Assembly (NCBI GenBank): GCA_044892525.1
Contig: CM097885.1
Location: 62,001 to 126,000, forward strand
DNA length: 64,000 bases
Reading direction: 5' to 3'
Origin: Schmidtea polychroa
Lineage: Eukaryota
Shown here: positions 1-64,000 of the stretch, in pieces
Layout of the letters: every line of letters begins with the position of its first letter
How positions within the stretch are numbered: position 1 is the stretch's first letter
Position numbers and translations under genes: made by a program
The notes under the pieces: generated by a model
Database searches by the model: none
Seen by the model: the letters and a program-made list of their open reading frames with translations, nothing else
Told to the model about the DNA's origin: nothing

Positions 1-1
1 A

Positions 2-253
2 ACTTTCAATTCTTGTTGTTGTTAAATCAGTATATTTTTTAAAACCATCTACATATTTCTTATTAACTGCATCAGCTTCATCAGTTGGAAAAGATAATTC
101 TTTTATCTTGTGTCCATTTAAAATTAAATCACCCTTCATTGAATCACCTCTTTCATTAATATATTTATTTTCTGTTAAAGTTAATATTTCTTCTGTATTA
201 AACCCTGTTTTTATTGTTCCACCACCTCTATTACATGGAATATAAGAACTCAT
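2..253 (-). CDS. Putative fibre/spike-like protein, runs off the window
   Basis: Manual translation from ATG at 253: MSSYIPCNRGGG...GDSMKGDLILNGHKIKELSFPTDEADAVNKKYVD, a motif type seen in trimeric fibres/adhesin necks. Lies directly after the penton. Confidence 0.55.
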   Translation of the reverse strand, partial: MSSYIPCNRGGGTIKTGFNTEEILTLTENKYINERGDSMKGDLILNGHKIKELSFPTDEADAVNKKYVDGFKKYTDLTTTRIES

Positions 254-277
254 TTATTAATAATTTAAAATGAATCT

Positions 278-1042
278 TCAAACCTGTTTCAAATGTAAAT
301 ACATTGAAATCTCTTCTCCATTAAAATCAATCAATTCTCCTTCTTGATTAAGAATTTTAAAATTAATATCCATTATATATTTTCTACATAAAGGTAAATA
401 ATTTGGAGGATTCATTCTTTCAACTATTTTATATCCCATAGGAACTGTGTTTGAGGGAAAGGAATATAAAACATTTGTTTGTTTACCATTATTATAAGAA
501 CCTGTTATACAATCGCAATGAATATTTATTGTATTTGTATTTATTATTTTTATAATATGTTCTGATGTTATTATTTTATCTTCTTTTATTGTTATATCCA
601 TAGGTTTAAATCCTAAAACTGTGTGAAAGAAACAATTATCTAAAAAACTAATTTTTATACTCTTCAAAGTCATTACACATTTTGAAGTTGGTATATCCAT
701 TTTAATTTTAATACCTTCATTTGTTTTTTTAGAAAGTATATCATTTAAATCTTTTATCTCATATGCCCCAGGTTCTATTGTTATAATTTCTGGTTTATGC
801 CCATCACGAGTTTGAATAGTAAATTTATTATTATCTTTAGTTATATTAAAAATAGTATTATAATCATAAAACCATAATAGTCCCAATTCATAATTTAAAT
901 TTTGATCTAATTTAATTGAATCTTGAAAGTTTATAGTAAACTCTGATTCTTTTGAATTTATAGATAAAGTTCTTGAATATTTATCTGACATTATGTTTAC
1001 CATTTTTTTTAAATTATCTTCCGGAGGGTTGTGAAGCTCCAT
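278..1042 (-). CDS. Polinton minor capsid protein (penton)
   Basis: IEPGAYEI and IHCDCITGSYNNGKQTNVLYSF...GYKIVE...NQEGELIDFNGE motifs typical of Polinton pentons; gene context. Confidence 0.85.
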   Translation of the reverse strand: MELHNPPEDNLKKMVNIMSDKYSRTLSINSKESEFTINFQDSIKLDQNLNYELGLLWFYDYNTIFNITKDNNKFTIQTRDGHKPEIITIEPGAYEIKDLNDILSKKTNEGIKIKMDIPTSKCVMTLKSIKISFLDNCFFHTVLGFKPMDITIKEDKIITSEHIIKIINTNTINIHCDCITGSYNNGKQTNVLYSFPSNTVPMGYKIVERMNPPNYLPLCRKYIMDINFKILNQEGELIDFNGEEISMYLHLKQV

Positions 1043-1090
1043 TTCTTTAGTAGTAAATTCATATAGTAAAAATCCTTATAGTAAAAATCC

Positions 1091-59875: not shown

Positions 59876-60254
59876 TATTATTAATATTATTATTATTATT
59901 ATTATTATTATTATTATTATTATTATTATTATTATTATTATTATTATTATTATTATTATTATTATTATTATTATTATTATTATTATTCTATATACTCCGA
60001 GTCTTTCCGACAAAATATTTTGTCCCCCTATTGGTACTGCTCACAAGAGTACTCGTCACGCTCAACAACTCGCAAAGGTACAAAGATATTATTAAACAAT
60101 GTAATAAAACACATATTTTCTAAATTTATTATTATTATTATTATTATTATTATTATTATTATTATTATTATTAATATTATTATTATTATTATTATTATTA
60201 TTATTATTATTATTATTATTATTATTATTATTATTATTATTATTATTATTATTA
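59876..60254. repeat. Two long (TTA)n microsatellites
   Basis: About 59886-59987 and 60128-60253. Confidence 0.95.
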
Positions 60255-60535
60255 GTATTAATCTATATACTCCGAGTCTATCCGACAAAATATTCTGTCC
60301 CCCTATGGGTACTGCTCACAAGGTAAAGGTCACAAAGGTAAAGGTCACAAATGTACTGCTAAAAATATTCAAGACAAAACTTTAAGAAATTATACTTTAA
60401 ATATACACTAAAATTTATTAACACACTGGGTAAAGGTCATAAAGGTACTTAATGTACTGTTAAAACTATTCAAAACAAAACTTTAACATATTATTATTAC
60501 ACACAATGTATAAAAAATTGTTCACAAAGTTAGTG

Positions 60536-63500
60536 TTAAAAAATATTCAAGACAATAAGATCAATACATTTATTAAATAATTTAACCACATCATCGAAAA
60601 TAATCATGTCCAAATAATTATCATCTGCTGGATCAAGGAAATCATCTGTATCATCTGCTGTGATAGCTTCCGTTGAATCTATAAATATATCGGTGTCACC
60701 GCCCCTATAATGTACATTTTTATCCACCCAATTTCGCTTATCATCTCTACACGTCAATGCTCTTTTATTATTTTTAATACTAAAAAGTTGGTGATTTTTT
60801 GACGTTATTCTAAACTGAGGGACTGTGTATATTTTATCATTTAAATAACAATCTAGATACGACTGATGTGTTAGTCCAGTATCTTTCATACTTATCCCCT
60901 TAGCCTTCATACTTTCCTCATCACCCATCAAACTGTAACATTTAGGTCTCAAGAACACCCAATCTTTATATATTAACCCTTTATTCTCGTCTTTGAATTT
61001 ACCAATAACAGAATCAAGGTTCCTACTATATAAAGGATGATTTGGGTCATAATTCGAAGTATCTAATAATTGATCTCTAATCATCCCAGGTAAAAGAATG
61101 TCAAGACTACAATGTTTAATTTCCAAGAAGAAGGAATCTGTGTCCCCAGCAACGATATTAATTTCGCAGTTGAATTCGTCGCGATATTTTTGCAACTCTT
61201 CATACTGCAGCTGGTACATCCTGAGTTTGGATAATCTAGTACAGTTTGACCAATGTAACTAGGTCTATTCAAACACACTATGTGCTACCTCAATAGAACC
61301 GAAATCAAGTCATCATCGATTTTCGTGGATTTACGAAAAGTCGGTTTCGAACAGAATGTTAATAATCTCTGTGAAGAATTACACAGACGTAAATTAATAC
61401 GTTTTTTAAGATTTTCAACAGTCTTGCCGTAAAGACTGTTGTTTAATAATTTATAAAAAATTTTATCGAGTTTATTTGTCGACGCTGCTCGTAACGCCGT
61501 ATTTGTGTTAATATAATTTTTGAAAATTTTATCTTGTTTAAATTTAATTGCTCTATGTGTTTTTGATATTTTAACACCTAATTTAATAAATATTTGTAGA
61601 AGCCTCCAATGAAGAACGTAGTTCCTCTTGGGGCTGTGTGTAAGCAACAGCTTCTCTATTTTCGAACCCGGTACACACATCTTTTCAGCGGCAACGGGAA
61701 GATCGTCCAGTTTGTTGTGAATTGACGTCGGTATTTCTAAATCCACTTCTATGGTATAACCATAATCAAGCAGATCTAAATCTACCGTTGTGCATTCAAC
61801 AATTATATTATTTAATAAATTATTATCAGTAACCCATTCAAAGTCACTGCACGGTAATGGTTGACTTAAAGATCAACCGTATAAATTATTTATATCTATG
61901 TAAAGCAAAGCGGTATCCGGGTCTGTTTTTACATAATGTTTATTTACAAAAGTTAGTCCGCCACGGATACCGCCCTCGAAAAAGTTATACATCTCCATAT
62001 CGGTGAGGAGCTCAATTGGAGAGTTTAAAGTTAATAAGGCTGAATTCCAAGACATAACTGGAATCCCTAAGAAATTTAGTGGCTCTAGTCGGTTATGAGC
62101 AATGGACTTAGCTCTAAATTGCTGGAAAAAATCGGCTAAAAAGAAAACATCAAGTTTTAAATAAACCATCATGTAATCGAAAAGTGATGTACATGAAGTT
62201 TCAACCCAAATTTGCTGAGCTGTCTCATATTCAGCGGGAGTCACATCTTTCCAAATAGGAGGTAACTGACGAGTGTTATGTAAAACCTCTAATGAAGTTG
62301 CGGCATCATAAAGAAAAATTCCCTTTGCAGTTATTATTGTACCCTGAAATTCTGATTCGGTCAAGGGTAAAGATGATAAAGTTTTGACAGCATTGTTTAA
62401 AGACTCGCTGACAAATTGATAAGAGTCTATAAATTTAACAGTTAATGAGTCAATCCTAGCAAAAAGACTAAGGAATTTCTCGCTGGTTAAAGGAATACAA
62501 CTAATATTCCATGAATGATATTTTGAAAGGCCAAATTTCAAGATATGATGCAGATCATAACCCTTTAAATTATGAAATACTACATGAAGGGTATATCTAA
62601 TTTGCCTCGACAGATTACAAGTTGTACAAGCGGCACCAAGATATAGACCGATAAAATGATCATGGGCCCTAACTGGACTAACTAAAGGCTTATTGCACAA
62701 ATAACATGATGTGCTGTTTTCAAACATTAATTGTTGCTCATCTGTAATTATCATTTTCTTTTGATAATTTTTATAATAATAAAGAGTTACAATATATTTC
62801 CCTATCATTTCAATTTCAGTAAGAAATTGATCGACACAATCTAAACCGGTGAACGACTTATAAATTTTTACGCCCGTGAAATTATTAATAAAAAGCATAC
62901 CGGCAGAAATAGGCAGATGACGTTGAAAGTAGCGAGTGTCTTTAGGTAAGATAGTCTCAAAGTCAGCGTAAATAACAAAGGGAGGAGTGACTGTTTTACT
63001 CCAATCAGTAAATTCTAAATATTTATTTTTAGGCAATGTGTACAAGGTAGTACCAAGCTGATTTTTATCACAAAGACCCTTATGTCTATTAAAAGCGTCA
63101 TCATACCTAAAACCGTTTAAACATCTAGGGCACCACTGACTACAAATCCTAACAGGAGTGATTGAACTATTCCTACAATTAAGGAATCTATTTAGGTCTG
63201 TGATTCCAAGATAATGATAATTATCATTCTTTTCGATTAATAATAAATTGATAGGTATGGCTCCTACTATCTTACTCCTGTATATTATATCAATAAAGGG
63301 ATGTTTCATAACTGCATCTTCATCGGAAATGTCAATCAAAGCCTTTTCGTTATAAGTAAGAACAATAATACTATAACCCGGATTTTGTTGTTCAAATTTA
63401 CTTATATTTGATAGTTTCATCGGCATATCATTAGGATCAAATTTAATTTCAGAAAGATTGTATGAATTAGGGCGATTTCTATCTTGCCTATTTATACTAT

Positions 63501-63936
63501 CATATTTAATAATTGACAAGAAACTATACAAAAGGCAGAAGTGGTCATTAATAACTACATTAACGAGACAGCTTAAGTTTCTTAAAGATTTTGGGGTTTC
63601 AATAAAACTTCTACCACTTAACCGACTTATTTCAGCAAATTTAGTCAGAACAAAGCTTATGTATTCTATTTTATTGATAGTCCAATTACTACCTTTCTCA
63701 TTAATTTTAATTATTTTTTCATTTAAACGAGCAATACCTTCGTCAATGAATGTATCGCTCCAAACTCGGGTGGAATTCGAGATTACAAAAGATTGTAACT
63801 CATCATCTTTTATAAATTCCACCTTTAGACAAAATTGAATTTTACATGATTTTAATTTATTTACATATAAATTTAATTTATTTATTAAAATGTCTGGTAC
63901 AGAGACCGTTTTTAAATCTAAAGACGAAACGTCCAT
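60536..63936 (-). pseudogene. polB: Protein-primed PolB of element D, intronless, inactivated
   Basis: Homologous to C PolB throughout. TGA at 61875-61873 (NLYG*SLSQ), TAG at 61287-61285, 1-nt deletion near 61235; the C-terminal AYGHY motif appears partly deleted. Confidence 0.92.
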
Positions 63937-64000
63937 TTTTAATATAATATGATTATTATTTAAATCACTGGTGACATCTACGATACCATAACCTACTTGA

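Follow-up and report, generated by a model that had tools for sequence, protein, structure and literature searches.

Polintons, or Mavericks (polintoviruses, adintoviruses), are thought to bridge viruses and transposons. Here, we analysed a stretch of 64,000 nucleotides from Schmidtea polychroa (positions 62001-126000 of CM097885.1, hereafter the window), which lies near the start of a 271.6-Mb contig in an assembly of 781 Mb that includes four contigs of 93-272 Mb. The window, 62-126 kb from the end of this chromosome-scale contig, appears to consist of piled-up and rearranged Polinton/Maverick elements, which fall into four families, A to D. In the explanation that we favour, A and D are complete Polintons, B and C are palindromic derivatives that were inserted in trans, and the palindromes would have arisen through a U-turn in replication. 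Taken as a whole, we regard this explanation as reasonably probable, while the sequences give the U-turn step by itself less than an even chance. As in the Polintons already described, A and D have a protein-primed DNA polymerase B (pPolB), an rve integrase, a packaging ATPase, a capsid or capsid-like gene, AG...CT ends and 6-bp target-site duplications. Unlike in those elements, a protease was not detected in A or D, and B and C are without the defining integrase and capsid genes.

Several described systems come close to one or another of these families. According to the available part of the report on them, adintoviruses have PLA2-like and Bcl2 accessory genes, the PLA2-like ones as virion proteins (PMC8502044), which match a PLA2-like domain in A and a Bcl-2-like open reading frame (ORF) in D, although the PLA2 of A sits in the integrase ORF. 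Butterfly polintons, as far as the accessible text of their description goes, have gene-bearing terminal inverted repeats of about 2 kb with the capsid and protease genes and are otherwise complete (10.1101/2025.02.07.637071). C resembles them in that its genes are doubled by lying inside inverted repeats, but it is all repeat (6.4-kb arms plus a 0.2-0.3-kb hinge) and has the polymerase only, with no integrase. The Foldback and Galileo elements of Drosophila, in the portion of the account at hand (PMC3573991), share with B very long, internally repetitive arms and no genes; unlike them, B has a 6-bp duplication and Polinton-type termini and is associated with no P-type or other transposase. 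In the protist Halocafeteria, endogenous virophages and polinton-like viruses are nested and have terminal palindromes, as complete viruses with ordinary insertion (10.64898/2026.07.28.741278). Nesting and palindromes just inside the termini (in B, GGGAACAA-C(n)G(n)-TTGTTCCC) are likewise found here, whereas the accessible sections of that account describe no polymerase-only or gene-less palindromic families. Tlr1 elements and transpovirons are at times called non-autonomous polintons, and the available passages describe a helicase fused to an inactivated polymerase (PMC5499653); they are Polinton-like derivatives without virion genes, as are B and C, but are not palindromic and have the helicase-polymerase fusion. 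In the literature on non-autonomous or palindromic (snap-back) Polintons and Mavericks, supplements aside, this Tlr1-type account was the only one found, and no polymerase-only or gene-less palindromic families appeared.

A further parallel lies in viruses. Adenovirus and other linear viruses produce snap-back defective genomes, in which one end is copied back to give two identical, replication-competent termini; such genomes depend on a helper and are transient in infected cells. A palindromic molecule with two identical ends is also what C and B present, but these are stable germ-line families with about 155 and about 500 integrated copies, respectively.

The four families were recognized by their ends. 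In the window, the A end AGTAGTGTGG had 2 matches (51508-51517 and 58801-58810 on the minus strand; 0.03 expected), the B end AGTAGGTAGATAG had 3 (6848 plus, 33655 minus and 50071 minus; 0.00 expected), the C end AGTAGTGAATAG had 2 (11292 plus and 28685 minus; 0.01 expected), and the D-type end AGTAGAGTAGGG had 2 (21980 plus and 22305 minus; 0.11 expected). A preliminary description, made from the letters of the window, had claimed four distinct AGTAG-ended families at these places, and the motifs were indeed found there, each far above chance; it also correctly placed a large D about 660 bp from an A end (D start 59471, A end 58810). Genome-wide pattern counts gave 1012 A ends (517+495), 1005 B ends (493+512), 313 C ends (159+154), 255 hinge-type ends with a double AGTAG (128+127) and about 400 single-AGTAG D ends (657 minus 255). 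B is therefore not peculiar to this locus, a case for which the preliminary description had allowed. Copy counts are slightly inflated by duplicate insertions of C or A (L020/L027, L021/L022, L032/L035 and L104-L107), which have identical 600-bp or 80-bp flanks at two places each, for example a pair on contigs C31 and C2, or C1:52.53 Mb with C1:52.57 Mb; segmental duplication or redundancy among contigs may account for them.

All four families have the target-site duplication of a Polinton. Perfect 6-bp duplications were seen in 8 of 8 pairs of C ends, 11 of 13 pairs of B ends (of the exceptions, one matched at 5 of 6 positions and one had mirror flanks), 9 of 10 A pairs, and the single D pair; two A pairs with identical flanks represent one insertion that was duplicated later. 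The ends themselves have only 5 bases (AGTAG) in common. Those of B and D both have AGTAGG and, at positions 21-29 in the same register, the 9-mer CGGGAACAA, followed by a C-run/G-run palindrome, while A and C share only AGTAGTG. For the shared end-recognition machinery proposed earlier, these 5 bases are all that the four families offer in common, and the stronger links are pairwise (B with D, A with C). The B terminus has a 38-nt palindrome just inside the end, GGGAACAA-TTA-C(n)G(n)-T-TTGTTCCC, with varying run lengths (e.g. window 33600-33655, L040-L059); the C-run comes first in 16 of 20 cases, the halves are swapped (G-run, TA, C-run) in 3 of 20, and the G-run is lost in L054.

A and D appear to be autonomous, virus-like Polintons that are ordinary and complete at other loci; here and throughout, elements were compared as natural copies, with no consensus built. 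Copies of A measure 14.6-15.5 kb and are about 99% alike. Copy A1 has pPolB (in two ORFs), an A32-type ATPase, rve with a PLA2-like domain, and a double-jelly-roll capsid gene, and Pfam matches in the window to an ATPase, an integrase and a capsid gene agree with the virion and integrase genes previously claimed for A. The A integrase matched PF00665 (rve; E = 4e-12 to 7e-12) and the capsid PF21738 (E = 2e-25). Ahead of the rve core, the integrase ORF has a parvovirus-type PLA2-like domain (PF08398, E = 4e-9); this PLA2-rve ORF was located at L002:3015-4277, in the A copy at G000:C1:1318015-1319277. Two A-type ends that face each other 270 bp apart (G000:C1:9385422-9385695) are possibly a miniature A derivative.

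The one D copy fetched, D-a, is 14.2 kb long, and the listed pairs of D end motifs lie mostly 14-16 kb apart. D-a encodes a pPolB with an endonuclease-VII-like zinc module, an integrase with a hint of a chromodomain, and an ATPase. Its rve match (E = 1.1e-6) is below the curated cut-off, and the integrase is 40% identical to that of A over 115 aa. A 407-aa ORF, recognized only once D-a was read across the locus boundary, is colinear with the A capsid protein (21% identity over 308 aa, E = 5e-4) and has no Pfam match. Otherwise, BLASTP of the D ORFs against the A ORFs gave a match for the integrase (E = 6e-17), a weak one for the ATPase (E = 0.012) and no others. Two further ORFs of D-a (L017:4596-4934, L017:5887-6207) are TBP-like (PF00352, E = 9e-9) and, weakly, Bcl-2-like (E = 8e-4). 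For protease or minor capsid genes, a Pfam threshold raised to E = 5 brought no convincing match in A or D, and all that was seen of a protease was a weak hint of Peptidase_C39 (E = 0.057). The pPolB family PF03175 matched in A1, D-a, the window D and C, and C and the window part of D show only this gene, as had been described. The same description had set D apart from ordinary Polintons and had named the finding of a complete ordinary D as evidence to the contrary; D-a is such an element.

C differs from D in not being a complete Polinton of the ordinary kind: it forms a palindrome of 13 kb with two arms of 6.4 kb. This structure, with two PolB genes, was seen in each of the 3 full copies fetched (3 of 3) as well as in the window copy, whose arms are 100% identical over 5981 nt. 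Its content is fully accounted for by the two PolB arms and the hinge, without integrase, capsid or ATPase. Of 46 pairs of C ends, 37 are spaced at 12-14.1 kb, and a longer, autonomous form with C ends was not seen among the first 100 ends listed. The C polymerase is 52-62% identical to the D polymerase and about 25% to that of A, and it retains the Exo I-III and Pol A, B and C motifs as these are usually defined. Its 862-aa ORF is open in all 8 arms of four full copies, with a frameshift in one shorter copy. Within a copy, the arms have 0-1 differences in 2586 nt, as against 3-49 nt from copy to copy. The ratio of nonsynonymous to synonymous substitution rates (dN/dS) lies at 0.28-0.35 when copies are compared, and synonymous changes are in excess in three pairs (binomial p = 9e-6 in the pair that diverges most, then 0.007 and 0.006). 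As read from these codon comparisons, the low dN/dS together with the open ORFs indicates that the C polymerase is under purifying selection and therefore mattered while the family spread.

Giant palindromes could in principle be assembly artefacts arising from long-read chimeras, and, close to a contig end and among many repeats, arms with 100% identity over 4-6 kb are what such an error might leave. However, the same 13-kb palindrome stands at many loci with different flanks and perfect duplications, and contigs of 20 listed sequencing runs from 8 studies contain parts of the C arm and the hinge stretch, so we give the artefact hardly any credence. Some contigs from sequencing runs that carry the label of a second organism (38% of words) also contain parts of the C arm; the C family may be shared with a relative or may have been transferred.

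The centre of C, which had been taken for a miniature D nested in C, did not prove to be an insertion. This hinge has 29-nt D-type inverted ends starting AGTAGAGTAGGG and a 268-nt unique loop with 27-bp tandem repeats, and its length is 225-326 bp in the measured C copies. In the window, its flanks are mirror images (AAAAAC / GTTTTT) with no duplication. The hinge-end motif with a C-type flank was found in copies Ca and Cb, at one end of Cd, and at 7 of 7 further loci sampled, whereas in copy Cc a deletion at the centre has removed the hinge. Flanks were exact mirrors over 12 nt in 8 of the 10 hinges read (5 of the 7 sampled, plus the window, Ca and Cb), the remaining 2 sampled loci having mutated or different flanks, and a direct duplication was found at none of the 10, including 0 of the 7 sampled loci. 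The hinge is the palindrome centre in every copy where it is present, and it is inherited from one founding event. A free miniature element was ruled out by the same absence of a direct duplication in the 7 sampled copies. Frequent slippage was likewise rejected as the source of the reiterated AGTAG, as the triple form had 0 matches and the double form (255) had C-type flanks at 7 of 7 sampled loci, which makes it a family mark. At L128 (G000:C1:226251808-226252188), a D-type-ended hinge lies between mirrored flanks unlike the C arm sequence, which suggests a second, related palindromic family.

Mirror flanks extend beyond C. The A copy A1 is bordered by 197 nt of perfectly mirrored B-like flank with no duplication, one B copy has a mirrored flank over at least 40 nt, and in B1, the larger B copy of the window, C material is bounded by CTCCAA and TTGGAG, which are mirror images of each other. 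In C, these features combine into a snap-back signature: reverse-complement arms, a short unique loop bounded by an inverted repeat, and mirror flanks with no duplication.

B is a fold-back family of about 500 copies of about 15 kb each. The copy B2 consists of 7.4-kb arms around an 886-bp centre, with an inverted repeat of 4144 nt that is 100% identical; its inner arms are 99.8% identical and its outer arms 94%. The arms are mostly tandem arrays with periods of 14 to 120 bp. Two further B copies are palindromic, and the 32 listed pairs of B ends lie 8-33 kb apart, with a median near 15 kb. The claim that B is non-coding held: the 15.1 kb of B2 contain 0 ATG-started ORFs of at least 70 aa, and tblastn with 31 protein sequences of A, C and D found no match to protein remnants in B2. 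The insertion of B into A with an ATTAAT duplication was also confirmed. ATTAAT stands on both flanks, and in two uninterrupted A copies elsewhere (L002, L004) the site is empty, the sequence up to window position 6847 being followed at once by that from 50072, with a single ATTAAT. B has thus truly inserted into A.

Although neither B nor C has an integrase, both show perfect 6-bp duplications at many loci, and with their Polinton-type termini they were therefore probably inserted in trans; this helper-dependent insertion, already proposed from the window, is the natural reading of the sequences. The two families are probably non-autonomous derivatives inserted by the rve integrase of a resident Polinton, and the likeness in AGTAGG and CGGGAACAA would make D the likely helper of B. 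On this reading, C is probably semi-autonomous, copying itself with its own polymerase and borrowing insertion and any capsid, while the gene-less B would borrow everything. Alternatively, B might be an unrelated transposon of the Foldback/Galileo type, with a non-Polinton transposase encoded elsewhere and an AGTAG end by coincidence. Long arms of tandem sub-repeats and the absence of coding capacity are indeed the classic fold-back architecture. Duplications, however, are 9 bp in FB and 7-8 bp in Galileo/P, against 6 bp in 11 of 13 B pairs, and the B terminus and the 9-mer at positions 21-29 match D, which makes this alternative very unlikely.

As to how the palindromes arose, we propose that replication of a linear element might make a U-turn (snap-back) at the inverted repeats of an element nested in it. 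One arm would be copied back on itself, giving a molecule with two identical, insertable ends, and the C hinge would be a relic of this turn. The mirror flanks that lack a duplication would be explained because a U-turn at the inverted ends of a nested element yields exactly these in one step. The snap-back route is also favoured because a fragment with a single end would thereby become a molecule with good ends on both sides.

The same structures could instead have formed in the chromosome, through gene conversion from arm to arm, template switching of replication forks at inverted repeats, and deletions, B and C being otherwise plain non-autonomous transposons. The greater identity of the inner than the outer arms of B2 (99.8% vs 94%) is as expected of conversion strongest near the palindrome centre, the internal junctions of B1 have microhomology of 1-2 nt, the centre of Cc has been deleted, and other events took place in situ at this locus (the unmatched A flanks, the inverted junction at 58475-59470, and the duplication of B with 1273 bp of A). 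Yet the C palindrome arose once and spread as a unit to about 155 sites with duplications, as a transposing form; mirror flanks recur in three different families; and a chromosomal origin needs three ordered steps per case. We therefore consider a purely chromosomal origin unlikely, though far from negligible.

Several observations nevertheless weigh against the explanation by trans insertion and replication U-turn. The near-identity of arms would equally follow from gene conversion between close inverted repeats, and mirror flanks could also result from insertion into one arm, homogenisation of the arms and deletion between direct terminal repeats. Across copies, the outer arms of B, about 94% alike, can be told apart as left-type and right-type, so that a recent complete snap-back did not produce them. 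A pre-snap-back progenitor of C was not found. The dN/dS of C is based on 4 copies. Moreover, its 208-aa and 862-aa ORFs are in frame but separated by 273 nt with 7 in-frame stops, so that splicing or bypass would be needed; this stop-rich stretch may be an intron or a decayed linker. A broader form of the U-turn explanation, that Polinton-type linear replicons repeatedly spawn palindromic offspring in this way and form a three-tier ladder of complete (A and D), polymerase-only (C) and gene-less (B) elements, is put forward as a tentative possibility.

A different question is whether the four families form a system of hyperparasites, as the preliminary description proposed, with helpers and satellites that share end recognition and preferentially insert into one another. 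Insertions of C lay in A or D-like sequence in 4 of 19 events (28 flanks, 3 of them duplicates of others), and insertions of B lay in A or B-like sequence in 6 of 20 events (22 flanks), while 4 of 40 random 600-bp windows matched the same library, which held only the four families. The pooled comparison (10 of 39 events vs 4 of 40; odds ratio 3.1, one-sided Fisher p = 0.063), in which the insertions sampled were the best-scoring matches rather than a random set, does not establish such a preference. The nest is as expected in a genome of which roughly a tenth is already such sequence. The AGTAG terminus common to all four families, the 6-bp duplications of the integrase-less B and C, the 10 of 39 events and a second, independent insertion of C into B elsewhere, with canonical duplications, all fit the hyperparasite proposal. 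Against it, the random windows leave p at 0.063 for insertions chosen by best score, the mini-D is never an independent insertion, D is an ordinary complete element, and only 5 bases are common to the four ends; we therefore judge such a system improbable.

The elements of the window were mapped by self-comparison and by reading of the junction sequences (Table 1). The preliminary description did not report that C and B are giant palindromes, nor that 33656-34933 duplicates 50072-51344. Its claim that C sits in B stood in part: C material does lie within B1, but not as a clean insertion, since B1 is a mosaic of a partial C end, a B inner arm and a full C. The left terminus of the full C meets B at a 2-nt microhomology and is missing its first base, and the junction at 12288 has a microhomology of 1 nt. 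The last 534 bp of the inner arm at 12288-15652 recur at 28686-29219, forming a direct repeat that flanks the full C. A transposing composite was rejected as the source of the B-C junction, which was found in the window only.

Table 1 Features of the window (positions 1 to 64,000)
Feature	Position	Strand	Remarks
A body	1-6847		Colinear at 98% with complete A copies L001/L002 and L003/L004; Pfam matches
A32-type ATPase of A	3025-3855	+	
rve integrase of A	3867-4910	-	
Double-jelly-roll capsid gene of A	5763-6596	-	Interrupted by the B insertion
ATTAAT target-site duplication of the B insertion	6842-6847		Partners 33656-33661 and 50072-50077
B1, mosaic B copy of 26.8 kb	6848-33655		Outer arms 6848-11291 and 28686-33655; C material between
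C end, first 997 bp, terminus complete	11292-12288	+	Flank CTCCAA mirrors TTGGAG at 28686
B inner arm, right-arm orientation	12288-15652		Equivalent to 43282-46649
Full C, 13-kb palindrome	15641-28685		Arms 15641-22008 and 22277-28685
Main pPolB ORF of C, 862 aa	16456-19044	-	Mirror copy 25241-27829 (+); PF03175, E = 3.3e-31
208-aa ORF of C, like the N-terminal part of D PolB	19318-19944	-	Mirror copy 24341-24967 (+)
Hinge of the C palindrome ("mini-D" of the preliminary description)	21980-22305		
Copy of the first 1273 bp of the A right part	33656-34933		Equivalent to 50072-51344; stops at the non-canonical left end of B2
B2, fold-back B copy of 15.1 kb	34934-50071		Arms 34934-42358 and 43245-50071; centre 886 bp
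A right part	50072-51517		Terminus CCACACTACT on the plus strand, then duplication CATTAT
Target DNA of A, 3.25 tandem units of 2141 bp	51518-58474	+	192-aa two-HMG-box ORF per unit
Second junction of this A insertion, inverted	58475-59470	-	A terminus (336 bp), ATAATG, unit tail (660 bp)
D left part	59471-64000		pPolB in three ORF pieces on the minus strand

The window also records rearrangements that followed insertion. A inserted at CATTAT into an array of HMG-box units that are 99.4-99.7% alike, with two HMG boxes (PF00505, E = 5e-28). The flanks of the window A do not match (ATTCAA on the left, CATTAT on the right); the missing CATTAT junction lies inverted at 58475-59470, where ATAATG is the reverse complement of CATTAT. 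This mismatch would fit two steps, an inversion between two A copies in opposite orientation and then a deletion. B together with 1273 bp of A is tandemly duplicated, with the junction at the non-canonical left end of B2, AGTAGATAGTAGATAGTAGCC, where AGT is common with A; a sister-chromatid transposition model for this duplication did not fit that junction and was dropped. The left end of the window A lies upstream, at about position 3238 of L018, adjoined by an ORF of 787 aa that has the gag-like domain DUF1759 of Pao/BEL retrotransposons (L018:550-2913), and the window D extends to about position 3094 of L019, where it is broken off. G+C content ranges from 20 to 34%, and the standard code was used for reading, as the ciliate code gave no improvement of the ORFs; searches of the window for Rfam families and tRNAs found none.

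The main interest of this locus lies in the palindromic derivative families rather than in the nesting. Little has been written about parasites of Polintons, and B and C are abundant derivative families that show what can be lost, in a set of four families that makes up a considerable part of an animal genome (matched by 4 of 40 random windows). C keeps a replicase that appears to be under selection and drops the integrase and capsid, so that copying is separated from inserting in a natural experiment. The palindrome signature would be a testable route by which linear, protein-primed replicons give defective but mobile offspring, and the same route could give rise to fold-back elements with very long arms.

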